Shown piece after piece: positions 86-10,754 of a stretch of DNA of 10,754 nt (position 1 is the stretch's first letter; the number at the start of each line of letters is the position of its first letter). The stretch is from positions 1 to 10,754 of the forward strand of contig CAZJBZ010000137.1 of NCBI GenBank assembly GCA_964543975.1, in the 5' to 3' direction. Made by a program: the position numbers and the translations under genes. Below the pieces are notes generated by a model. It searched no databases, had not been told where the DNA came from, and worked only from the letters and a program-made list of their open reading frames with translations. Source of the stretch: an uncultured Spirochaetales bacterium (GTDB lineage Bacteria; Spirochaetota; Spirochaetia; SPDA01; CAZJBZ01).

Positions 86-2794
86 ATGGCAAAGAAAACC
101 CTCCGTTTAGATTTTTTAATTCCTTTTGTGGCGGCTGTCGCTTTCACGGCACTTCATTTCGTCGATTTTTATCAAGCCGGTGAAAACCGAATCTACGATC
201 AATTCCTGCATATTAAACCTGCCATAGAGGAAAATGAATCGATCCTTCTGCTCAATATCGACGATTTAGCAATTGCTAAAGTGGGAATGTTTCCCTGGAG
301 CAGGGCCGTCATGGCGGACGGCCTCCTTTTAATGCGTGAGATGGGCGCGCGGTATGCCGTATTCGATATTGAGTATACCGAAGAAAGCCCTCTCGGTGTA
401 AACAGCGCTCTTCTGAAAGAGGAAATTCCGGAGCTATTCGGCAACGAGTTTTCAGCGATTCGAGAAAACATCAAATCTCTCTTCTCCGCGATCGCCGGGG
501 GAAATATTCCATTGTCCGATGCTCAGGATTATATCCAGGATTTGGCAGGGCTTACCGATGAATCGAAAGAGACGCTCTTGAATAAGGTAAATGAAATTGT
601 CCGGGACAATGACATCTACTTAGGCCAAGCGGCCCGTTTTTTCGGGAACGCCTTTTTCACCGTTAATATGCTCCCCGACGAAGATAAGGACATTCCCGAA
701 GAGTTGAAGGAGTGGGTACACGACAACATAACACTACAGGACGTCAGGGTCGAGAGAGAATATCCGATAACGGCCACCGATATCCGTCCGGCAATCGAAC
801 CGATCATCACCAAAGGGGAGGGGGCGGGATTTCCCAATATCATCATCGACGTTGACGGTGTACGACGGCGGGTCCATCTCCTTATCGAACATGAGGGCCG
901 GTATTTCAGTCAACTCGCGTTTCGTGCCCTTTACCATTGGCTCGGTTCACCGCCGGTAATTATTGAGAAAGAAAGAATGATCTTACAAGGAGCCATTCTC
1001 CCCGACGGAGAAAAAAAAGACGTATCGATTCCTTTCGATGAAAACCATCGGGTCCTTATCAACTGGCCTAAAAAGCAGTTCGACGACAGTTTTTCCTCTC
1101 TCTCCTACTGGTATTTGGTACTGCACCGAAGACAGGAGGAACGGCTTATCGACAACCTTCGGATAATGAACGACGCCGGATTTCTCTCGTTCTATGAAGG
1201 TGATACCGACCTTATGAGCGCGTATGAATACGCCCAAAGCATTGAGCGGGACGTCTTGGATGGCGGAGATACCGAACAGATTGAAGAATACAAGGAGGTA
1301 AGGGAGTTTTTCTTTACCGAAGTGGGAGCGTTCCTGCAAGGAAACGGAGAGAGCTCAATACAAGCCGAATTGGACAGGGCCCTTGCAACCGAAGGCTTGC
1401 CGGAAGAGTATAAAGAGCGTTATCTGCAGATAAAAGAGGATGTAACGGAAACATTTGCCGCCACCGGAGAAATTTCGGAAAATCTTGCGCAAACCCGCGA
1501 GGTGTTAAAGGGGGCGCTGCCGGGCGCGTTCTGCATCATCGGATGGACCGGAACAGCTACGACCGACCGGGGAGTGAATCCTTTCGATGAAACCTACGAC
1601 AATGTCGGGACCCACGCGTCCATCGTCAATACGGTAATCAATACGAAATTTCTCGATATGCTGCCGTGGTGGTACTCGGCCATCGCCGGATTAATCTGTG
1701 CTTTTGCCGTTTATCTTCTTATTCGCGGATTGAATCCGGGACTCTCAATCGTGATCGGGGTAGCGTTCGTCATCCTGATAATCGGCGGCGGAGTGGCCTT
1801 TTTCATCTTCACCGGGAAATACTTTCCCATGATGACTCCGGTCCTCACTGCTTCTTCTACCTTTTTAGTCCTAACGGTGTTCAAGTTTCTATCGACAGCA
1901 AAAGAGCGTACCTATATTAGGAACGCGTTCAGTCACTATCTTTCAACCGACGTTATCAACGAGTTGATGGATGATCCGGATAAGCTTGCCTTGGGCGGAA
2001 CAAAGAAGAACCTCACTGCTATTTTTACCGATGTAAAAGGGTTTTCCACCATTTCCGAGTCGATGGACCCGACCGATTTGGTCCGCCTCCTCAATACCTA
2101 TTTAACCGAAATGAGCAATATCATTCTCGAGATGCGGGGTACAATCGATAAATACGAAGGAGACGCTATTATTTCCTTTTTCGGTGCTCCGATAGAGTTC
2201 GCAGACCATGCCCGCAGGGCCTGCCTGTCGGCAATTCGTATGCGGCGCGTGGAAAAAGAGCTCAACGAACGTGTCCTGGCTGAAAAGATGAGTGAGTACC
2301 CTCTCTATACCAGGATAGGTATCAATACCGGAGAGATGGTCGTCGGGAACATGGGGACCGCCCAGAAAATGGATTACACGATCATGGGAAATTCGGTCAA
2401 CCTTGCGGCACGGTTGGAGGGTGTCAACAAGCAGTACGGCTCATGGACGTTGATGAGTGAAGCGGTGTATGAAGCGGGGGGAAAGGATTTTGTCACAAGG
2501 CAGTTCGACCGGGTCCGCGTAGTCGGTATTAATCAGCCGGTACGGCTTTATGAACTGCTCGAAGAGTGGAATAATTTGAGCAGTGAGGAACGAGAAGCTG
2601 TCGATATTTTCCACCAAGGGTTACAACGATTCGAAGTAAAGGAGTGGGATGCCGCTAAAGCGCTTTTTTCCCAAGTGTTAAAGGTGAAGCAGGAAGACGG
2701 CCCAGCGCAAACCTATATAAAACGGTGCGACGACTTTAAAGTGAAGCCGCCCCCCGAGGACTGGGACGGTGTCTTTAACCTGACGATGAAGTAA
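86..2794 (+). CDS. CHASE2-domain sensor adenylate cyclase (class III; CHASE2 about 190-1657, 3-TM bundle about 1658-1890, cyclase catalytic domain about 2000-2565, helical TPR-like C-terminal tail)
   Basis: The 902-aa ORF has an N-terminal hydrophobic helix (LIPFVAAVAFTALHF), then a long extracytoplasmic region, then three hydrophobic helices (MLPWWYSAIAGLICAFAVYLL... / IVIGVAFVILIIGGGVAFFIF / VLTASSTFLVLTVFKFL). The canonical class III nucleotidyl cyclase core follows: FTDVKGFS (metal Asp), KYEGDAIISFFG (K-x-x-G-D: purine-binding Lys plus second metal Asp), and YTIMGNSVNLAARLEG (Asn/Arg transition-state pair, with Thr at the second specificity position, which is the class IIIb adenylyl pattern). 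RBS-like AAAGGTG sits 4 nt upstream of the ATG at 86. Confidence 0.85.
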   Translation: MAKKTLRLDFLIPFVAAVAFTALHFVDFYQAGENRIYDQFLHIKPAIEENESILLLNIDDLAIAKVGMFPWSRAVMADGLLLMREMGARYAVFDIEYTEESPLGVNSALLKEEIPELFGNEFSAIRENIKSLFSAIAGGNIPLSDAQDYIQDLAGLTDESKETLLNKVNEIVRDNDIYLGQAARFFGNAFFTVNMLPDEDKDIPEELKEWVHDNITLQDVRVEREYPITATDIRPAIEPIITKGEGAGFPNIIIDVDGVRRRVHLLIEHEGRYFSQLAFRALYHWLGSPPVIIEKERMILQGAILPDGEKKDVSIPFDENHRVLINWPKKQFDDSFSSLSYWYLVLHRRQEERLIDNLRIMNDAGFLSFYEGDTDLMSAYEYAQSIERDVLDGGDTEQIEEYKEVREFFFTEVGAFLQGNGESSIQAELDRALATEGLPEEYKERYLQIKEDVTETFAATGEISENLAQTREVLKGALPGAFCIIGWTGTATTDRGVNPFDETYDNVGTHASIVNTVINTKFLDMLPWWYSAIAGLICAFAVYLLIRGLNPGLSIVIGVAFVILIIGGGVAFFIFTGKYFPMMTPVLTASSTFLVLTVFKFLSTAKERTYIRNAFSHYLSTDVINELMDDPDKLALGGTKKNLTAIFTDVKGFSTISESMDPTDLVRLLNTYLTEMSNIILEMRGTIDKYEGDAIISFFGAPIEFADHARRACLSAIRMRRVEKELNERVLAEKMSEYPLYTRIGINTGEMVVGNMGTAQKMDYTIMGNSVNLAARLEGVNKQYGSWTLMSEAVYEAGGKDFVTRQFDRVRVVGINQPVRLYELLEEWNNLSSEEREAVDIFHQGLQRFEVKEWDAAKALFSQVLKVKQEDGPAQTYIKRCDDFKVKPPPEDWDGVFNLTMK

Positions 2795-2796
2795 GC

Positions 2797-3339
2797 ATGG
2801 ACAACAATTGGAACGTTCTCTCGAAAAAGAAAGTGCTCGAAAGCGGTAAATTCCTTTCCGCTTTTCAACACACAATACAACTGCCGGACGGACGGACCAT
2901 CGACGACTGGATTTGGCTTTCGATGCCCGATTATATCAATGTCGTGGTAGTAGACATGTCCGGGCGGTTTATCATGCTTCGGCAGTCTAAATATGGAATA
3001 GAGGGACAATCCTACGCTCCGGTTGGCGGGTTTATCGAGCCGGGGGAAGAACCACTCTCCGCGGCAAAGAGAGAAACGCTGGAAGAGATTGGATACGAAG
3101 CGCCGCAGTGGACCTTTCTCGGAAGCTACCGTGTAGATCCAAACAGAGGCTGCGGGACTGCGTACGCCTATCTTGCGACCGGAGCGGAAAAAACCACCGA
3201 ACCGAACGCCGATGACCTCGAGGCTCAAGAGATTGTTTTTTTGAACCGGGTGGAGGTTGAAGATGCCCTCTATTCCGGTGGTTTTAAAGTACTTCCCTGG
3301 GCCAACAACGTGGCGATGGCCCTTTTATATCTGAAATAA
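2797..3339 (+). CDS. Nudix hydrolase, ADP-ribose/ADP-sugar pyrophosphatase-like
   Basis: Canonical Nudix box G-x5-E-x7-REUxEExGU is read in GFIEPGEEPLSAAKRETLEEIGY. The N-terminal region (W-x-VL-x4-V-x2-G-x-F...LPDGR...NVVVVD) resembles the NudF/ADPRase family N-domain. The ATG at 2797 is only 2 nt after the cyclase TAA (2792-2794), which indicates translational coupling. Confidence 0.8.
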   Translation: MDNNWNVLSKKKVLESGKFLSAFQHTIQLPDGRTIDDWIWLSMPDYINVVVVDMSGRFIMLRQSKYGIEGQSYAPVGGFIEPGEEPLSAAKRETLEEIGYEAPQWTFLGSYRVDPNRGCGTAYAYLATGAEKTTEPNADDLEAQEIVFLNRVEVEDALYSGGFKVLPWANNVAMALLYLK

Positions 3340-3340
3340 C

Positions 3341-3358
3341 TGAGGCAATTGCCACAGC
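3341..3358. repeat. 18-bp near-perfect palindrome CTGAGGCAATTGCCACAG (16/18; perfect 10-bp core GGCAATTGCC at 3345-3354) immediately after the Nudix stop codon
   Basis: Reverse-complement comparison is read directly from the sequence. There is no downstream U-tract, so this is not a canonical intrinsic terminator. Confidence 0.4.
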
Positions 3359-3515
3359 CCCCCTGCGATAGAAGCCCAACCGAGATTCAAAACCCGAAAA
3401 TCACATCAGGATAGATTATTAAATCGGGAAATAGCTTTGATCGAATTACTCTTTTCATAGACTGAGTGGAGTTCTGTTTTTTCCTTTCTTGCTTCAATGA
3501 ACACCCTCTACCAAA

Positions 3516-3592
3516 CTAATAAAAATCGAAAAAAAGGTTGTCAAAATTGTACTAATGTATTAAACTCATATTGTATTATGACATTAGTACAA
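3516..3592 (+). promoter_or_regulatory. Candidate sigma70-type promoter of the GntR operon, with an A-tract UP-like element and a perfect 12-bp inverted-repeat operator pair
   Basis: A-rich tract AATAAAAATCGAAAAAAAGG (3516-3535) precedes TTGTCA (3538-3543, -35-like). After a 17-nt spacer comes TAAACT (3561-3566, -10-like, 4/6). An alternative -10 is TATTAT at 3574-3579. Half-sites TTGTACTAATGT (3547-3558) and ACATTAGTACAA (3581-3592) are exact reverse complements. Together they give GTAC...N...GTAC, the GT-N-AC architecture typical of GntR-family operators. Confidence 0.45.
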
Positions 3593-3595
3593 TAG

Positions 3596-4012
3596 TTGGA
3601 GGATGGCGTGACTGAAAAGGATAATGAAAAAACGCTGGATTTTAGTCTTGATCCCAAAAGCGGTGTCCCTTTTTATAAACAGATCATACTCCAGATAGAG
3701 ATGGCAATTGCGGACGGCAGATTGGTTAGCGGAAATCAGCTGCCGACGGTCAGGGGGTTGGCGGTGGAATTGAAGATCAATCCGAATACGGTAGCCAGAG
3801 CGTACAATGAACTGGAAATCAGAGGTGTCGTAACCACCCAACAGGGTTCCGGCACCTTTATCAGCGACAAAAAAATTGAAATGAACGAGGTAGAAAGAGA
3901 GCGCGTTCTTTCCGAATTGACCCGCTCTTTTGTCACCACCGCCGGTTCGTACGGTTTTACAATCGATGATATTATCGATGCCCTGGAAGAGTATACCAGG
4001 GAAAACAGTTGA
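3596..4012 (+). CDS. GntR-family transcriptional regulator, YtrA-like subfamily (short C-terminal domain)
   Basis: Winged-HTH GntR signature QLPTVRGLAVELKINPNTVARAYNELEIRGVVTTQQGSGTFIS, with only about 50 aa C-terminal to it. The ORF track begins at TTG 3596. A better start may be GTG 3608, preceded by GGAGG (3598-3602) at 5-nt spacing. The stop TGA is at 4010-4012. Confidence 0.85.
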   Translation: MEDGVTEKDNEKTLDFSLDPKSGVPFYKQIILQIEMAIADGRLVSGNQLPTVRGLAVELKINPNTVARAYNELEIRGVVTTQQGSGTFISDKKIEMNEVERERVLSELTRSFVTTAGSYGFTIDDIIDALEEYTRENS

Positions 4013-4023
4013 GGAGGGAAAAT

Positions 4024-5151
4024 ATGGACCTTGTACAGAAAAAAATCAGTCGTATAAAAAACCTGCAGCAGAAAGCGTTGCAGCGGGATTTCAGCTACAA
4101 TGTTTTTTCTTACCTTGTTTTTGGATTATTTCTCACGGTGGGAATTCTGGTGCAACACATTCTCGATCCATCGGTGAGAACCGAAGAAATTGTCTGGATC
4201 GGCGGGGGGGCCATCGCTGTAGGAGTCATTCTCACGTTGGTGCCGCTCTGGATCATCGTTGTTCAATTGATAATCGCTGCATGGATCTGTATGTACTTCT
4301 TTTTTTCGTTCAATTTTTATCCGGTCTTTGTCTGGATTTCTTTAGGTCTTGTGTTCTCGGCCTGTTTCGAACTTATCTATCAATGGGACAAGGTTGTCAT
4401 CTTGCGGTTTGGAAAGTTTAAAAAGGTGCATGACGCGGGACTCTTCCTCTTAGTCCCCTTTGCCGACCGAATTGCCTCGTTTGTCGATACCAGAATCCGG
4501 GCCACCGATTTCAGCGCCGAAAAGACACTGACCAGCGATACGGTGCCGGTGCATGTCGACGGTCTCGCCTTCTGGATGATATGGGACGCAAAGAGGGCCA
4601 TTTTAGAAGTGGAAAATTTCGTGGAAGCCGTCACCCTTTCAGCCCAAACAGCACTGCGGGAATCGATCGGTAATCACGATTTGAATACACTGCTTACCAA
4701 TCGAAGGACCCTCTACAAGGAAATCCAGAGTGTTTTAGATACCAAGACCAATTCCTGGGGCATCACCATTCTCTCGGTGGAGTTCACCGACATCAATATT
4801 CCTCAGGGTCTTGAAGATTCGATGAGTAAGGTGGCCCAGGCCGAACGTGAAAAACAGTCCCGGGTCATCCTGGGTACCGCCGAAGTGGAGATTGCAAAGA
4901 AGTTTGCCGAAGCTTCGGAAAGCTACAAGGACAATGAAACCGCGCTCCACCTTAGGGCGATGAACATGATCTATGAAGGCATTCGGCAGAAAGGATCGAT
5001 GATCATGCTTCCCGCGTCCGCGCTGGATTCGATGAACTTGGGAACAGTAATGGGGACCGCCGCGTTAAAATCGATAGAAAGCGAAGCCAAGGAAGAGCCG
5101 TCGACTGAAACAGAGAGAGATGAAAATGAGAAAGGAGAACAAAAGAAATGA
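4024..5151 (+). CDS. SPFH/band-7 (stomatin/HflK-C/flotillin-like) membrane protein with a polytopic N-terminal region and an acidic C-terminal tail
   Basis: The N-terminal 120 aa hold 3-4 hydrophobic helices (YLVFGLFLTVGILV, IGGGAIAVGVILTLVPLWIIVVQLIIAAWICMYFFF, PVFVWISLGLVFSACF). An SPFH core follows (VVILRFGKFKKV...LFLLVPF...VDTR...TLTSD...LAFWMIWDAKRAILEVENF...ALRESIGNHDLNTLLTNR). The tail is Glu/Lys-rich. The track start at 4009 is a TTG overlapping the GntR stop. ATG 4024 is preferred because GAGGAGGG (4012-4019) lies 4 nt upstream. The stop overlaps the next start (ATGA, 5148-5151). Confidence 0.85.
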   Translation: MDLVQKKISRIKNLQQKALQRDFSYNVFSYLVFGLFLTVGILVQHILDPSVRTEEIVWIGGGAIAVGVILTLVPLWIIVVQLIIAAWICMYFFFSFNFYPVFVWISLGLVFSACFELIYQWDKVVILRFGKFKKVHDAGLFLLVPFADRIASFVDTRIRATDFSAEKTLTSDTVPVHVDGLAFWMIWDAKRAILEVENFVEAVTLSAQTALRESIGNHDLNTLLTNRRTLYKEIQSVLDTKTNSWGITILSVEFTDINIPQGLEDSMSKVAQAEREKQSRVILGTAEVEIAKKFAEASESYKDNETALHLRAMNMIYEGIRQKGSMIMLPASALDSMNLGTVMGTAALKSIESEAKEEPSTETERDENEKGEQKK

Positions 5152-5828
5152 TAAAGGTAGATAGCGTAATCAAAGATTATATCGCGGGGGAAACAACCGT
5201 CCATGCGCTGCGCGGGGTGTCGCTACAGGTTGACGACGGTGAGTTTATCTCGATAGCAGGCCCTTCCGGTTCGGGTAAGACAACCCTTCTCAATATCATC
5301 GGGTGTCTCGATTCGGCCGATGCGGGGAAAGTGTTTATCGACAATGAATTGGTGACCGAGAAAGACAGGCGGGAACTGGCCCTCCTGCGGCGTCGGAAAA
5401 TCGGTTTCGTGTTTCAGTCCTTTAATCTTATTCCCGTACTGACCGCGTATGAGAACGTGTCATTCTCTCTTTCGCTCTTAGGGATCGGGGATGAAGAAGT
5501 TTACGACAGAACGATGGATATGCTTCGAGAGGTGGGTTTGGAGACGATGGCCGATCGGCGACCGGCGGAACTGTCGGGCGGACAACAGCAGCGGGTTGCC
5601 GTGGCGAGGGCCCTGGTAAAGGACCCGCAGATGGTGCTGGCGGACGAACCGACTGCCAATCTCGATTCAAAAACGGGAGAAGACATTCTTGCTTTGATGG
5701 AGGACCTGAACAAGACCCACAACACGACATTTGTCTTCTCTACCCATGATCCCATGGTTATGGATTTTGCCCACCGTTTGGTACAGCTCCATGACGGTCA
5801 TATAACCGATGATAAAAGGAGGAACTGA
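5148..5828 (+). CDS. ABC transporter ATP-binding protein (LolD/MacB-NBD-like)
   Basis: Walker A GPSGSGKTT, Q-loop VFQSFNL, ABC signature LSGGQQQRVAVARAL, Walker B VLADEPTANLD, H-loop FSTHD. At 226 aa it is the typical size of a stand-alone NBD. It is coupled to the upstream gene by a 4-nt ATGA overlap and to the downstream gene by a 1-nt TGATG overlap. RBS AAAGGAG lies upstream. Confidence 0.9.
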   Translation: MIKVDSVIKDYIAGETTVHALRGVSLQVDDGEFISIAGPSGSGKTTLLNIIGCLDSADAGKVFIDNELVTEKDRRELALLRRRKIGFVFQSFNLIPVLTAYENVSFSLSLLGIGDEEVYDRTMDMLREVGLETMADRRPAELSGGQQQRVAVARALVKDPQMVLADEPTANLDSKTGEDILALMEDLNKTHNTTFVFSTHDPMVMDFAHRLVQLHDGHITDDKRRN

Positions 5829-7102
5829 TGAAATTCCTTCTCTCATTGGCATGGAAAAATCTGTTTAGACACAGACGGCGGACGATGATTACCGCGAGTG
5901 CTATAGCGGTTGGGCTGGCAATGTTTATCATGATGGAATCGATGCTTACCGGTATGAGCCGGGAGACGGAGCGGAACCTGGTATGGTACGAAACAGCGGC
6001 AGGCAAGATAATGACGCAACAATTCTGGGAAGAACGGGACCAGATGCCGCTGAAACACGCGATTGAAAATCCTGAACCGATTTATGAAACGCTGCGGGAA
6101 CTCGCTATACCCTTCACTGCCAGGACAGCATTCAGCGGCGAACTGATCGTACAGCAGGACCCCTTTCCCGAGCACGGATCGATGCAGCTGCAGTTCGTCG
6201 CCATCGATCCGGAAACGGACGGCAGAGTATTCAAACTGGAAGAGTCGGTTGCCGCGGGCCGGTTTCTTGGACCGGGAGAAAACGGAATCATGCTTGGAGC
6301 GTGGCTGGCCGGGGATTTGGGCGCGGAACCGGGGTATCCGGTAACAATCGTTACCAGGACCAAAACCGGGTTTTTTCAAACGGTAGACCTCACCGTTGTG
6401 GGAATTCTCAATACACCCAACCCGGTGATCAATCGGTCGATGGCTTTCATAACGAAGGAGACCGCTGATACCTATCTGCAGATGGAAGGGGCTGTCACCG
6501 AAATCGATCTTGGTTTTTCCGATTGGATCGAACCTGACCCTGTTGCCGAAACGATCGATAAAGCCCTGCGTGAAAGTGGGGCCGCTGCCGCAGCGGGCGG
6601 GAACGAATTGACGGTAAAGACGTGGGAAGAACTTGCTCAGGATTTTATCCGGATCGCAAGTGCGAAAGAAGTGGGAAGTAAGCTGATTCTCTTCCTCGTC
6701 TTTGTCATTGCTGCCGTGGGGATATCCAATACAATGCTGATGGCTGTGTTCGAACGTATTCGGGAGTTGGGAATGATGCGGGCGATGGGGATGGAAGACA
6801 GGCATATCCGCTGGAGTTTTCTCATGGAAGCGGGAGGGATCGGTTTATTAGGCGGTACAATCGGTGTCGTTCTCGGAGTGCTCATTAATATTCCTCTTGT
6901 CAATGTCGGTATCGATTTTTCGATGTTTGTCGAATCGATGGATATAGGATATCGGACGACGGGAATTATGCGGGGAATTTGGAATATCCAGACCATTGTG
7001 ACCGCTTTTTTTTCCGGGATTATTATCGCTGTCGTCATTGCGTTTATTCCTACTCGAAAAGCATTGAGGATGGAGATTACCGATTGCTTGCGGCATCAAT
7101 AG
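5828..7102 (+). CDS. ABC transporter permease, FtsX/MacB-fold (LolC/LolE-like), paralog 1
   Basis: N-terminus LSLAWKNLFRHRRRTMITASAIAVGLAMFIM (TM1) is followed by a large extracytoplasmic domain of about 220 aa. The C-terminal FtsX-type three-TM module follows (LILFLVFVIAAVGISNTMLMAVFERIRELGMMRAMGM...). At 424 aa it has the four-TM MacB/LolC-type topology. RBS AAGGAGG lies upstream. Confidence 0.9.
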   Translation: MKFLLSLAWKNLFRHRRRTMITASAIAVGLAMFIMMESMLTGMSRETERNLVWYETAAGKIMTQQFWEERDQMPLKHAIENPEPIYETLRELAIPFTARTAFSGELIVQQDPFPEHGSMQLQFVAIDPETDGRVFKLEESVAAGRFLGPGENGIMLGAWLAGDLGAEPGYPVTIVTRTKTGFFQTVDLTVVGILNTPNPVINRSMAFITKETADTYLQMEGAVTEIDLGFSDWIEPDPVAETIDKALRESGAAAAAGGNELTVKTWEELAQDFIRIASAKEVGSKLILFLVFVIAAVGISNTMLMAVFERIRELGMMRAMGMEDRHIRWSFLMEAGGIGLLGGTIGVVLGVLINIPLVNVGIDFSMFVESMDIGYRTTGIMRGIWNIQTIVTAFFSGIIIAVVIAFIPTRKALRMEITDCLRHQ

Positions 7103-7124: not shown

Positions 7125-8357
7125 ATGAAATTGCGTGAAATTGCATTTAGAAATATACGTAGGAACACCAGAAGGAGCATCCTCTCATTGAGCGCGATTG
7201 CGATAGCTTCTCTCACATTCGTGTTCCTCTTTTCTCTTCTCGGCGGGATGAAGGCCGATCTTGCGGAAAACCTTCACACCTACTACACGGGAGAGGTGAG
7301 GATACGAAATAGTGAATACAGTAAGTACGATTATCTCAATCCGCTTCACCTCAATGTCTCATCACCGGAAGAGGTGATAGAACTGGTAGAAAACAACGCG
7401 GCGGTGGATTTGGTCTCTCCCCGTGTACAATTCGGAACAGGTATTTACCGGGAGGGGAATACTTTTCCGGCAATTGGGATGGGAGTGGATTTTACCCGGG
7501 AGCGAAAGTATCAAGATTTGGAGCGGAATTTGGTCGAGGGGACCGTCCCATCCAACGGCAGGAATGAGGCCCTTATTGCCAAAGGACTATCCGAAGAGAT
7601 CGGAATCGGGGTGGGAGATAAGATGACACTGTTAACAAAAACTATGCGGGGCGGAACGAACGCAATCACCTTGACCGTAACGGGGATTGTCTCGTTTCCC
7701 GTAGCGGGGCTCAACGGAAGACTGTTTTTAGCCCCGCTCGACCGGATGCAGTATTTTCTTCGGATGAATGAGGGGGCCACGGAAATCCTTTTGAAACTTG
7801 CCCCCGAAGAGGAGAGTGCCGAGACCGCCGAGCGGCTTACTGCCGTTTTCAAACGGGCTGGTAGGGAAGAACTCATCGCGGAATCGTGGCGAAACATGAG
7901 CGAAACCTACAGTGCGATACAGATAGGGGACACTGTCTACACCATTATGGCGTTTCTCTTTTTCATATTGGGCAGCACCGTTATTATCAATACGACAATG
8001 ATGGTAGTCTACGAGAGAACAAAGGAGATAGGGACAATCTCGGCAATGGGGATGACCGGACCGGAAATCGTCAAACTGTTTTTTCTGGAAGCTTTTTTTA
8101 TCAGTGTTATCGGTTCGGCCCTCGGAGTCATCCTCGGAATAGGCATAACAATACCTATTGCCCATACGGGATTGAACTTTGGAGATGCGATGGAAGGGGT
8201 GGACATGGAGATGTCACCTGTTTTTTATCCTGTCCTGAATTTGCGCTCGACGGTTTTCGTCTTTTTCTATTCGACAATCGTCGCCTCGCTTGCCTCCTTT
8301 ATCCCTTCCCGCCGGGCCGCCAAAATCGAGCCGGTGGAGGCATTGCGGATGATTTAA
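7125..8357 (+). CDS. ABC transporter permease, FtsX/MacB-fold (LolC/LolE-like), paralog 2
   Basis: N-terminus EIAFRNIRRNTRRSILSLSAIAIASLTFVFL gives the same architecture as the upstream permease. The C-terminal FtsX module is AFLFFILGSTVIINTTMMVVYERTKEIGTISAMGM.... RBS AGGAGG lies 7 nt upstream of the ATG at 7125. Confidence 0.9.
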   Translation: MKLREIAFRNIRRNTRRSILSLSAIAIASLTFVFLFSLLGGMKADLAENLHTYYTGEVRIRNSEYSKYDYLNPLHLNVSSPEEVIELVENNAAVDLVSPRVQFGTGIYREGNTFPAIGMGVDFTRERKYQDLERNLVEGTVPSNGRNEALIAKGLSEEIGIGVGDKMTLLTKTMRGGTNAITLTVTGIVSFPVAGLNGRLFLAPLDRMQYFLRMNEGATEILLKLAPEEESAETAERLTAVFKRAGREELIAESWRNMSETYSAIQIGDTVYTIMAFLFFILGSTVIINTTMMVVYERTKEIGTISAMGMTGPEIVKLFFLEAFFISVIGSALGVILGIGITIPIAHTGLNFGDAMEGVDMEMSPVFYPVLNLRSTVFVFFYSTIVASLASFIPSRRAAKIEPVEALRMI

Positions 8358-8393: not shown

Positions 8394-9173
8394 ATGAAAC
8401 GACGAAATATGATACAATCCACGAGAGCACACATGAATCTCAGCCGCATCCTGTTGGCTGCGGCTTTTTTTGTCATCGCTGCAGGCGCCGTGTGGGCGCA
8501 GGATGTTGACCGGATACTTGAACGCATGGAAGGGAACAGGATCCACGAAACGTCCCGCTCTGAAGGGAAGATGATCATCGAAGACCGTTTCGGTAAGAAG
8601 GTCAGTACGTTTATCTCGTACAGCAGGGGTGCGGAAGAGAGTCTTGTCGAGTTCACTTCAAAACAGGAGCAGGGGCAAAAAATACTGCGTACCGAAGATG
8701 AAATCTACCTCTACTATCCTGACGCGGAAGAGATAATCCGGATGCAGGGTTCGGCACTGCGTGAATCGGTCTTGGGCTCCGATTTCTCATACGAGGACAT
8801 GACGGGGGAAAAGAGTATCCTCGACACCTTCGAGCCGAAACTCCTTGGAACGGAAACGATAGATGGGCACGATTGCTATAAGATCGAGCTAAAGGCGAAA
8901 ACACGGAATGTACCCTATCCTAAAGAGATTGTCTGGGTCGATAAAGATCGATATATCGCGTGGCAGGTGCATAAGTTTTCCCTCTCCGGAAAGCTTCTGA
9001 AAGAGATGACGGTCCATGAGGTAAAGGAGGTGAAGGGTAAAGTAATTCCCACCCACATGACGATGGTCGATACCATGAAAAAGAACTCAAGTACCGAACT
9101 GATCATTGAAGAGATGAAAATCAATGTCTCACTCGATCCTTCTCTCTTCTCATTGGAGGAGCTTACATGGTGA
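8394..9173 (+). CDS. Secreted periplasmic protein resembling the LolA-fold 'outer-membrane lipoprotein-sorting protein' family
   Basis: Signal peptide MNLSRILLAAAFFVIAAGAVWA|QD has no lipobox Cys. The mature part is about 225 aa, beta-rich, with motifs I associate with LolA-like/DUF-type lipoprotein-sorting proteins (RFGKK..., GSDFSYEDM, IDGHDCYKIELKAK, VWVDKDRYIAWQVHKF). RBS AAGGAG lies 7 nt upstream of ATG 8394. A possible alternative start is ATG 8433. The family assignment comes from memory of motif patterns and needs an HMM check. Confidence 0.65.
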   Translation: MKRRNMIQSTRAHMNLSRILLAAAFFVIAAGAVWAQDVDRILERMEGNRIHETSRSEGKMIIEDRFGKKVSTFISYSRGAEESLVEFTSKQEQGQKILRTEDEIYLYYPDAEEIIRMQGSALRESVLGSDFSYEDMTGEKSILDTFEPKLLGTETIDGHDCYKIELKAKTRNVPYPKEIVWVDKDRYIAWQVHKFSLSGKLLKEMTVHEVKEVKGKVIPTHMTMVDTMKKNSSTELIIEEMKINVSLDPSLFSLEELTW

Positions 9174-10453
9174 GAGGAAGCTTCTTTCGAGCACCTTGCC
9201 GTGCCGTACTCTGCGGTTTCTTCTTATTGTTTTTCGCCGGTCACGGGTTCGCGGAAAATGTTGTCTCCGTCGATCTTCGACCCATGCTCTCATTAGCAAG
9301 AACACCGGAAAACGATGGGAGTGAGTGGCTCTTTACCGCTCTTGGTGATGCAGGCGTTACCTTTTCCTCGAGAGGCAATAAGAATGTTAAGGCGGAGCTT
9401 GACTTGGACCTGACGGTAGGGCAAAACGTCCTCTTTGATGTTTCTCGTGCCTATATCAAGGTGCGGTTCCCCTGGTTCAGGTCGGTCCTGGGTAAAAACC
9501 GGATTTCCTGGGGCGAAGGGGTGATGTTCAACGCCGGCGACTTGATCGCCCCATCTTCCGGTTTCTCAACAGATTTGACACAGAGTGTTTTTCACGATGC
9601 CGGAGTCTGGATGGTTGAAGGATACATTCCGTTAGGCCGTTTCGCTTTTGCGGAGATCGTGGTGCTTCCGCCTGTCCCCACTTTGTTCCCTGTCGAATTG
9701 ACTACCGCATTGAGCCAAGCCGTGTCCGGGGTGCCCGGCGAGGCCGACGGAACACCTCCTCCAGAATCGGTGGCCGGTCTTACCCTCCCCTCAATAGAAG
9801 AAACAGCGTTGGGCGGAAGGATCTACCTGAAACCGCTGGGCATAAAGACCGAGGCGGGATATCTTTTCGAAGGCGCACAAGAAGCAGTCAATATGAAGCA
9901 TCGGCCCTACCTCAGTCTGCAGTGGCATCTACTGGTCGATTGGCAGGTTTCCGCATCAACGATCATTCCTGGTGAAGCGAGCGAAGGAAAAGAGTTATCT
10001 GAGGAGGCGTGGGAGAATACTGAAATAAGCTGGGGCCTCTTTCACATGCACAATTTTCGTCGCGGCGGTTCAATATCCTTACGTCTGGAGAGTACGGTCC
10101 GGCCGGCCGGTTCGTGGGAGCCGATAGAACACTCGGTCGAAAACGGTACCGTCACTGCGATCGAAGGGCCCGAGGAAACGGAGTCGGGGGAGCGAAGCGG
10201 AGAACAATACGGTATCCTCCTCTATCCTGAGGTCGTCATAAGCCCGACTTCCTCGCTTTCGTTCATCGGACGGAGTGTCTTTTCTCCTATTGATGCCTCC
10301 GGTCTGGTTACGGTCGGTACAAGCTGGAATATCTATCAAGGGTTTACCTTGTTGGGTTTCGTTTCCGTTCAAGGAGGCGGCCCGAAAGACCTTTTCGGCT
10401 GGGACAGAGCAGGTGATTTTGCCGTCAACCTGGGAATGGAGTTTACTTTTTAG
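9167..10453 (+). CDS. Putative outer-membrane beta-barrel protein (signal peptide; C-terminal aromatic residue) of unknown function
   Basis: Signal peptide MVRGSFFRAPCRAVLCGFFLLFFAGHGFA|EN. The protein ends ...NLGMEFTF with a terminal Phe, the classic signal recognised by the OMP-assembly machinery. The sequence is rich in alternating hydrophobic/polar stretches and Gly/aromatic residues. Its start overlaps the upstream stop by 7 nt (ATGGTGA), and GGAGGAG lies 5 nt upstream. Confidence 0.6.
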   Translation: MVRGSFFRAPCRAVLCGFFLLFFAGHGFAENVVSVDLRPMLSLARTPENDGSEWLFTALGDAGVTFSSRGNKNVKAELDLDLTVGQNVLFDVSRAYIKVRFPWFRSVLGKNRISWGEGVMFNAGDLIAPSSGFSTDLTQSVFHDAGVWMVEGYIPLGRFAFAEIVVLPPVPTLFPVELTTALSQAVSGVPGEADGTPPPESVAGLTLPSIEETALGGRIYLKPLGIKTEAGYLFEGAQEAVNMKHRPYLSLQWHLLVDWQVSASTIIPGEASEGKELSEEAWENTEISWGLFHMHNFRRGGSISLRLESTVRPAGSWEPIEHSVENGTVTAIEGPEETESGERSGEQYGILLYPEVVISPTSSLSFIGRSVFSPIDASGLVTVGTSWNIYQGFTLLGFVSVQGGGPKDLFGWDRAGDFAVNLGMEFTF

Positions 10454-10633: not shown

Positions 10634-10754
10634 ATGAATCCAAGGATAATCCACTCCCTGAAAAAGAGCATGAGGGTTTTTTCATTCCTACTCTTGATTT
10701 TTATTCCTGCTGTTAGCGGTCTGTCTCAATCGACATCCGAGCCTGCGGAGCGGT
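10634..10754 (+). CDS. Partial (5' end only) gene for a secreted/exported hypothetical protein; it continues beyond the window
   Basis: ATG 10634 is preceded by GAGG (10624-10627) at 6-nt spacing. The open frame runs to the window end without a stop. It translates to MNPRIIHSLKKSMRVFSFLLLIFIPAVSGLSQSTSEPAER, i.e. a positive n-region plus a hydrophobic core, which is signal-peptide-like. A 180-bp AT-rich gap separates it from the upstream operon, suggesting its own promoter. Confidence 0.4.
   Translation, partial: MNPRIIHSLKKSMRVFSFLLLIFIPAVSGLSQSTSEPAER

Follow-up and report, generated by a model that had tools for sequence, protein, structure and literature searches.

Stomatin-type SPFH proteins, known as SPFH1 proteins or slipins, face the cytoplasm, and 229 of 353 SPFH1 genes have an NfeD neighbour, about a third being without one (PMC2636767). 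Human stomatin assembles into 16-mer domes with a base diameter of ~140 Å and a height of 100 Å, built by the coiled-coil and the C-terminal strand, each of which encloses one AQP1 tetramer or one UT-B trimer (PMC12407830). Small GntR regulators of the YtrA subfamily are, as a rule, encoded by the first gene of the operon that they repress, usually together with an ABC system, and one YtrA subgroup accompanies membrane-protein genes (PMC6746942). Operons of this type, such as ytrGABCDEF of Bacillus subtilis, pmtR-pmtABCD of Staphylococcus aureus and ytrA with its membrane-protein gene in Sulfolobus, have a small GntR gene first, a palindromic operator over the promoter, and genes for an ABC exporter and/or membrane proteins next (PMC6746942). 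The stretch of DNA analysed here, hereafter the window, comprises 10,754 nucleotides from an uncultured Spirochaetales bacterium (contig CAZJBZ010000137.1) and has a comparable layout, except that the membrane-protein gene lying between repressor and ABC genes codes for an SPFH scaffold, the slipin of 4024-5151. Comparison with related loci shows that the repressor and the slipin form an evolutionarily conserved unit and that the exporter is an addition of Spirochaetia; the locus is considered, with fair confidence, to be an autorepressed YtrA-slipin membrane module that has been joined in Spirochaetia to an envelope-spanning exporter. The window contains nine open reading frames (ORFs), all on the plus strand, and only one SPFH gene is present in the operon, the genes of which are the following:

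3596-4012, plus strand: GntR regulator, YtrA subfamily, 138 amino acids (aa)
4024-5151, plus strand: slipin (stomatin-type SPFH) gene, 375 aa plus stop
5148-5828, plus strand: ABC ATPase of LolD/DevA/MacB type (Pfam ABC_tran, E 1.6e-33)
5828-7102, plus strand: FtsX / MacB-type permease 1 (Pfam MacB_PCD plus FtsX)
7125-8357, plus strand: FtsX / MacB-type permease 2 (Pfam MacB_PCD plus FtsX)
8394-9173, plus strand: LolA-like periplasmic protein (Pfam PF17131, TP_0789-like, E 8.4e-55)
9167-10453, plus strand: ORF9, predicted outer-membrane beta-barrel protein, 428 aa, without a Pfam family

The conservation of this gene order was examined in loci gathered by similarity to the window slipin. A one-genome-per-species scan gave 80 loci, 61 of them from Spirochaetia (Sphaerochaeta, Sediminispirochaeta and unclassified Spirochaetales), on which the window proteins were mapped by tblastn, and a metagenome scan seeded with a two-helix form of the slipin gave at least 590 confirmed stretches, the best 80 loci of which were examined for synteny. 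Cultured strains are among the carriers, for example Sphaerochaeta halotolerans 4-11 (L035), Sphaerochaeta sp. S2 (L026) and Sphaerochaeta sp. PS (L036). All synteny fractions refer to loci with enough flanking sequence. A GntR gene was found immediately upstream of the slipin gene in 148 of 149 loci overall, from at least five phyla, that is in 58 of 59 loci of Spirochaetia, 18 of 18 of other phyla and 72 of 72 soil metagenome loci (best 80 of at least 590). A candidate locus without the repressor, L060, was rejected, a run of masked N being present there. The closest relatives outside the spirochaetes, which match the window slipin only from about residue 100 on and are without MacB-type genes, belong to Acidobacteriota/Terriglobia, Verrucomicrobiia and Dormibacterota and to genomes of deltaproteobacteria or Myxococcales. 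The junction between the GntR and SPFH genes has a median of -4 nt, with an overlap in 41 of 58 loci. The two-helix slipin, a protein of 289 aa always preceded by a YtrA-type repressor and a GTACTAG-N4-TAGTAC palindrome (L081-L160 and L064-L080), is very common in soil Acidobacteriota-type contigs, from which at least 590 metagenome stretches were recovered. Neither the pairing of a GntR/YtrA regulator with a slipin nor a polytopic slipin anchor was found described in the open-access papers searched.

The exporter genes are kept within a narrower range. A MacB-type ATPase gene follows the slipin gene in 50 of 56 loci of Spirochaetia and the full downstream set of five genes in 33 of 37, with a median SPFH-to-ABC junction of -4 nt (a 4-nt overlap; 36 of 51 junctions overlap) and medians of -1 for ABC to FtsX and -7 for LolA-like to ORF9. 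In the remaining six of the 56 loci a four-helix slipin is present without a MacB-type ABC; four spirochaete loci are without any ABC neighbour and two (L007 and L058) have a DrrA-like ATPase and ABC2_membrane_3 permeases, of the ABC-2 type, after the slipin. In the deltaproteobacterial clade an ABC-2 ATPase and permease are encoded directly upstream of the GntR-slipin pair, and among the two-helix metagenome loci a weak ABC match lies nearby in just 2 of 72 (best 80 of at least 590). No conserved downstream partner was found outside Spirochaetia, an ExbD-like gene being present in some Acidobacteriota only. Four-helix forms thus tend to be ABC-linked and two-helix forms not, a correlation that rests on three clades only. 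Because the YtrA-slipin pair persists without any exporter, the core role of the slipin cannot depend on the exporter and, as two spirochaete loci carry the unrelated ABC-2 type, the link between slipin and exporter is not specific to one permease fold.

These comparisons bear on an initial annotation made from the window alone, which had placed an SPFH protein between the YtrA regulator (3596-4012) and the ABC ATPase (5148-5828), with a 4-nt ATGA overlap into the ATPase gene, and had proposed that the overlap implies stoichiometric co-production with an ABC/FtsX complex. The location is as described, the slipin stop TGA (5149-5151) overlapping the ATPase ATG (5148-5150), and the SPFH-ABC adjacency turns out to be conserved in Spirochaetia and not a one-off. 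Overlapping or abutting junctions are, however, the rule throughout the operon, so that the ATGA reflects tight operon packing and not stoichiometric production, and an SPFH dome needs far more copies than an ABC complex. As for the ABC/FtsX system as the partner of the slipin, the MacB-type adjacency stands for Spirochaetia, but the invariant partner is the YtrA repressor (148 of 149 loci), and a link specific to FtsX permeases does not survive the ABC-2-type exporters of L007, L058 and the deltaproteobacterial clade.

The GntR gene product matches Pfam GntR (E 1.6e-17, residues 27-89) and is composed of a winged helix-turn-helix followed by a short two-helix C-terminal part, the helices of which are moderately conserved. 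Its best solved relatives are YtrA-type proteins of 121-134 aa (4r1h, 4ham, 3neu, 6sbs and 2du9), and weak NCBIfam matches to Rv1152 and PmtR are both far under the cut-offs. By its sequence, the upstream regulator belongs to GntR's YtrA subfamily as defined in PMC6746942. In one related locus of a deltaproteobacterial genome (L067, 7297-7686) the C-terminal part of the GntR product fails to align, which suggests a frameshift or an assembly error. Two elements were recognised in front of the gene:

3538-3566, plus strand: promoter-like site, TTGTCA-17 nt-TAAACT (consensus scan, 9 of 12 matches), presumed promoter function
3546-3593: putative YtrA operator, an 18-nt inverted repeat (ATTGTACTAATGTATTAA / TTATGACATTAGTACAAT) with four TGTAYTA half-sites

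The promoter-like site is the sole plus-strand candidate upstream of the GntR gene, and the putative operator, with direct half-sites at 3548, 3556 and 3572 and an inverted one at 3585, extends over the -10 element and the probable start of transcription. TGTACTA, for which 0.32 occurrences would be expected, is found in just two places in the window, both within the putative operator. A GTAYTA...TARTAC pair within 160 nt upstream of the GntR gene was found in 56 of 74 related loci, compared with 5 of 5512 control windows, and the Acidobacteriota operator is a clean GTACTAG-N4-TAGTAC palindrome. The half-sites of the putative operator in the window go beyond a plain palindrome and are reminiscent of Sulfolobus YtrA, for which core and secondary half-sites have been described. 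With its gene order and an inverted repeat over the promoter-like site, the window fits the YtrA rule (PMC6746942), and by this family rule the regulator would repress its own operon.

The product of the SPFH gene was divided into five parts, of which the SPFH domain itself, as had been annotated, is beyond question from its Band_7 match (PF01145, E 3.2e-32, 112.4 bits compared with a Pfam gathering cut-off of 23.6):

4024-4101, plus strand: basic N-terminal tail, residues 1-26, with conserved R10, K12, N13 and D22, predicted cytoplasmic
4102-4365, plus strand: four-helix membrane anchor, residues 27-114 (AlphaFold2, hydropathy)
4387-4878, plus strand: SPFH / Band_7 domain, residues 122-285 (Pfam PF01145), predicted cytoplasmic
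4879-5076, plus strand: coiled-coil and C-terminal strand region, residues 286-351, aligning with the stomatin dome wall and cap
5077-5148, plus strand: acidic low-complexity tail, residues 352-375, ESEAKEEPSTETERDENEKGEQKK

The family of this protein was established by comparison with solved structures and with curated families. Human stomatin aligns with an E of 2e-33 over query residues 86-331 (HMMER), an alignment that covers the membrane segment directly before the SPFH domain and then the coiled-coil and C-terminal strand regions, and the other solved relatives follow with PH1511 of Pyrococcus (2.8e-32), QmcA of Escherichia coli (1.4e-25), HflC (8.5e-9) and HflK (6.5e-8). The NCBIfam scores are 66.5 bits for HflK (cut-off 159.4), 49.4 for HflC (134.4) and 17.7 for FloT (700). 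An HflK/HflC or flotillin identity was rejected on these scores, far under the cut-offs, and on the single SPFH gene of the operon; homologues are labelled 'slipin family protein' at NCBI. On these alignments the protein is an SPFH1 protein or slipin in the sense of PMC2636767 and PMC2258279, and the family check left open by the initial annotation is settled in favour of a stomatin-type protein and not HflK/HflC. The absence of an NfeD partner, also annotated, was borne out, no NfeD family being present among the nine window ORFs (Pfam) or in the annotated 21-kb homologous locus L161; the neighbours in 19 other loci, most of them compared by clustering on similarity and not by a Pfam scan, included no conserved NfeD-like gene. 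With stomatin, PH1511 and QmcA the window slipin shares the last membrane helix and the SPFH, coiled-coil and C-terminal strand regions, and its predicted cytoplasmic orientation would agree with that of SPFH1; the slipin differs from them by three extra helices and a basic N-tail, with no relatives outside the lineage among the matches inspected, by the YtrA repressor upstream, by motifs of its own and by having no NfeD partner. The HflK/HflC-FtsH cage, an SPFH oligomer enclosing a defined membrane client, is a model for the idea that the slipin corrals the exporter, but HflK/C face the periplasm and are a hetero-oligomer of two paralogues, the slipin scores far under the HflK/C cut-offs, and its operon has no FtsH gene.

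The slipin has ~8000 database relatives, the best 120 being full-length with 56-84% identity. Against the Acidobacteriota and Verrucomicrobiota forms the SPFH domain shows ~50% identity, 70 columns of the alignment being invariant, and the motifs DTVPV[HNY]VD and LRAMNM[ILV]Y are specific to the clade. A gene fusion or a mis-called start was rejected, the gene being a single ORF, of 355-423 aa, in more than 100 homologues as well. GGAGG at 4013-4017 precedes the ATG at 4024. With a TTG at 4009 as the alternative start, the start codon and the GntR stop would share bases as TTGA, in line with the -4 overlap typical of homologues, which makes the slipin start ambiguous; the ATG has the better ribosome-binding site and agrees with homologue N-termini.

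The initial annotation had also described a polytopic N-terminus of three to four transmembrane helices, and the upper end of this range was obtained from hydropathy, AlphaFold2 and the alignment of homologues. The hydropathy profile has three hydrophobic blocks at residues ~25-45, 54-98 (of double length) and 96-119, and the AlphaFold2 model, built on an alignment of 63 homologues, places helices at 27-47, 53-72, 76-93 and 96-114 with pLDDT values of 79-91, and further helices at 261-300 and 305-321. The hydrophobic pattern of the anchor and residues D22, P74, W76, W87, P100 and G108 are conserved across the 63 homologues. Since the pattern and these residues are kept in homologues of 56-84% identity, the anchor is genuine and under constraint. 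In the alignment, helix 4 corresponds to the membrane segment of stomatin, and helices 1-3 are a lineage-specific extension, the anchor being a lineage-specific four-helix bundle, unlike the usual single anchor or hairpin. No Pfam family was found for the N-terminal helices, even at E up to 1, and a search with residues 1-120 against 1.84 billion representative proteins gave 19 hits, of which the six inspected all belong to the same slipin family and most of the remaining ones look like fragments of it. Nothing in these searches supports the view that the helices were captured from the membrane part of NfeD or from some other known domain, although their N-terminal sequence evolves fast and could hide an origin.

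Over the 63 sequences the mean net charge is +3.9 in the N-tail and +3.1 in the segment that follows helix 4, and it is negative in loops 1 and 3. By the positive-inside rule and the SPFH1 precedent, the SPFH domain is predicted to face the cytoplasm with both termini inside. Whether it has two helices or four, every form of the clade has an even count, which would preserve this orientation. An acidic low-complexity C-tail, already noted in the initial annotation, is present at residues 352-375. In homologues it spans 8-48 residues with on average ~6 D/E to 4 K/R, and is thus polar and mildly acidic, and neither its sequence nor its length is conserved. Such an acidic or polar tail occurs in four-helix forms (Spirochaetia and the deltaproteobacterial clade), and two-helix forms are without it, ending in ...GGAKP. 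From the homology with stomatin through the coiled-coil and C-terminal strand, the slipin would be expected to form a dome.

Downstream of the slipin, the ATPase is under the NCBIfam equivalog cut-offs for both DevA and LolD (LolD 213.5 bits, cut-off 307.8), and permeases 1 and 2 score 95.8 and 127.1 bits for lolCE (cut-off 362). An identity as the LolCDE lipoprotein-release system was rejected on these scores, far under the equivalog cut-offs, the fold class being the same. The LolA-like protein has 3buu and 9tp6 as solved relatives. ORF9 has 103 homologues, all unnamed or spirochaetal, and its family appears confined to Spirochaetia, where it always closes the slipin operon. The AlphaFold2 model of ORF9 (pLDDT 86.9) has a signal helix followed by an all-beta barrel, its best Foldseek hits are porins (MOMP, OmpC, OmpF and AlgE, E ~1e-10), and the protein ends in ...MEFTF. 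The LolD-like ATPase, the two MacB-type permeases, the LolA-fold protein and the ORF9 barrel are predicted, from sequence and models, to form an envelope-spanning export route. Like LolCDE and MacB type VII systems with LolA, the set combines an ATPase with two distinct FtsX/MacB_PCD permeases and a protein of LolA fold; it differs from them in the PF17131 family of its LolA-like protein and in having an outer-membrane barrel of its own, ORF9. Several Sphaerochaeta loci have one more FtsX1-like permease, a paralogue at varying positions, after ORF9 in L017, L020, L025, L033, L037 and L043, before GntR in L032 and between the slipin and the ATPase in L057.

The rest of the window lies mainly upstream of the operon:

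86-2794, plus strand: CHASE2-adenylate cyclase, 902 aa, with a CHASE2 sensor and an adenylate/guanylate cyclase domain
2797-3339, plus strand: NUDIX hydrolase, after a 2-nt gap from the cyclase gene
3340-3595: intergenic gap of 256 nt

The cyclase and the NUDIX hydrolase may be a pair for cyclic-nucleotide synthesis and hydrolysis, and their genes are not kept beside the slipin operon in related loci. At the other end, position 10635 opens a plus-strand ORF whose first residues resemble a signal peptide (MNPRIIHSLKKSMRVFSFLLLIFIPAVSG...) and which is cut off by the window end (10754). An Rfam scan of the window gave no RNA family.

Explanations other than an autorepressed YtrA-slipin module were weighed against the same material. 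The slipin ring could, along the lines of the initial annotation, be a dedicated structural partner of the ABC/FtsX exporter, enclosing and regulating it in a membrane microdomain, with the extra helices and the acidic tail as adaptations to this client. Corralling of this kind has its precedent in the human stomatin domes, which enclose single transporters (PMC12407830), and by analogy a slipin dome enclosing the exporter is plausible; a cytoplasmic location is predicted for the ABC ATPase as well as for the SPFH side, the adjacency is kept in 50 of 56 spirochaete loci with its 4-nt median overlap, and the four-helix forms, to which the acidic tail is likewise restricted, are the ABC-linked ones. 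It is nevertheless rather unlikely that partnership with this exporter is what explains the slipin, slipin and repressor being without an ABC neighbour in at least 88 loci of the clade, six spirochaete loci being without the MacB-type ABC, two of them with the unrelated ABC-2 type, and gene overlap not giving equal stoichiometry. Highly improbable is an ordinary QmcA-like slipin, a general quality-control or FtsH-associated scaffold whose neighbours reflect shared regulation or chance and whose extra helices are neutral. Its SPFH, coiled-coil and C-terminal regions do align normally with stomatin and QmcA, the N-terminal sequence is fast-evolving and the absence of NfeD is shared with about a third of SPFH1 genes (PMC2636767), but chance is far exceeded by a repressor kept beside the slipin in 148 of 149 loci of several phyla, together with a conserved operator motif, and the conserved residues and the even helix count of every form point to a constrained anchor.

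A further explanation makes the slipin the sensor for YtrA, its dome or basic N-tail capturing or releasing the repressor according to membrane state in a two-gene switch. The small YtrA C-terminal part has been hypothesised to be unable to bind ligands (PMC6746942), and the SPFH domain, unusually conserved across phyla, is predicted to share its compartment with the repressor. The repressor-slipin pairing is invariant and usually translationally coupled across phyla, and in the two-gene versions the slipin is the sole other product of the operon. The proposal, drawn by analogy, is nonetheless pure inference and is judged clearly unlikely: no SPFH protein is known to sequester a transcription factor, at least one YtrA-type regulator, PmtR, senses ligands directly, the C-terminal helices of the repressor are just moderately conserved, and a repressor with its regulated effector is the simpler reading of a two-gene autoregulated operon. 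The SdpR/SdpI pair of B. subtilis is such a two-gene autorepressed operon of a repressor and a polytopic membrane protein; it has the same two-gene layout as YtrA-slipin with unrelated protein families, and the analogy is functional only. That the YtrA-slipin pair is a self-contained membrane-state switch, the dome of which both encloses the co-encoded exporter and captures a pocket-less YtrA repressor, is considered very unlikely; in such a dome of at least 16 subunits, the four-helix anchors could wall off a patch of membrane almost completely.

The autorepressed YtrA-slipin module, joined in Spirochaetia to the exporter, has several points weighing against it as well. The operator pair was not found with the simple pattern in 18 of the 74 loci, the repressor pairing, as judged from sequence comparison, applies to the clade of this slipin (~45-90% identity) and not to slipins in general, the topology is predicted only from charge bias and from the precedent of the family, the AlphaFold2 slipin model is poor in its SPFH part (pLDDT 36-72), and the data do not separate a slipin that is a mere regulated effector from one that talks to the repressor or the exporter. 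In the mechanism proposed for this module, a YtrA dimer on the operator would hold the operon low until a membrane or envelope signal frees it from the operator, upon which the slipin would be produced along with whichever membrane machinery follows. The slipin would then homo-oligomerise into a dome at the cytoplasmic membrane, on its inner face, organising or shielding a membrane patch and, in Spirochaetia, the co-expressed ABC exporter would be the probable client of this patch.

The clade is a well-delimited system in which the function of bacterial stomatins and the identity of the proteins enclosed by them can be addressed, and it offers three handles. The repressor and its putative operator can be used to find the inducing signal, the Spirochaetia operon has a complete envelope-spanning exporter beside the slipin as a candidate client, and natural variants exist that differ in helix number (two or four) and in whether an ABC exporter accompanies them. 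The finding also bears on how YtrA-type repressors, seemingly too small for ligands, sense anything. Should the pair prove to be a membrane-state switch, an SPFH scaffold would act as a transcriptional signal transducer, and a bacterial stomatin would have its first defined client and a signalling role.

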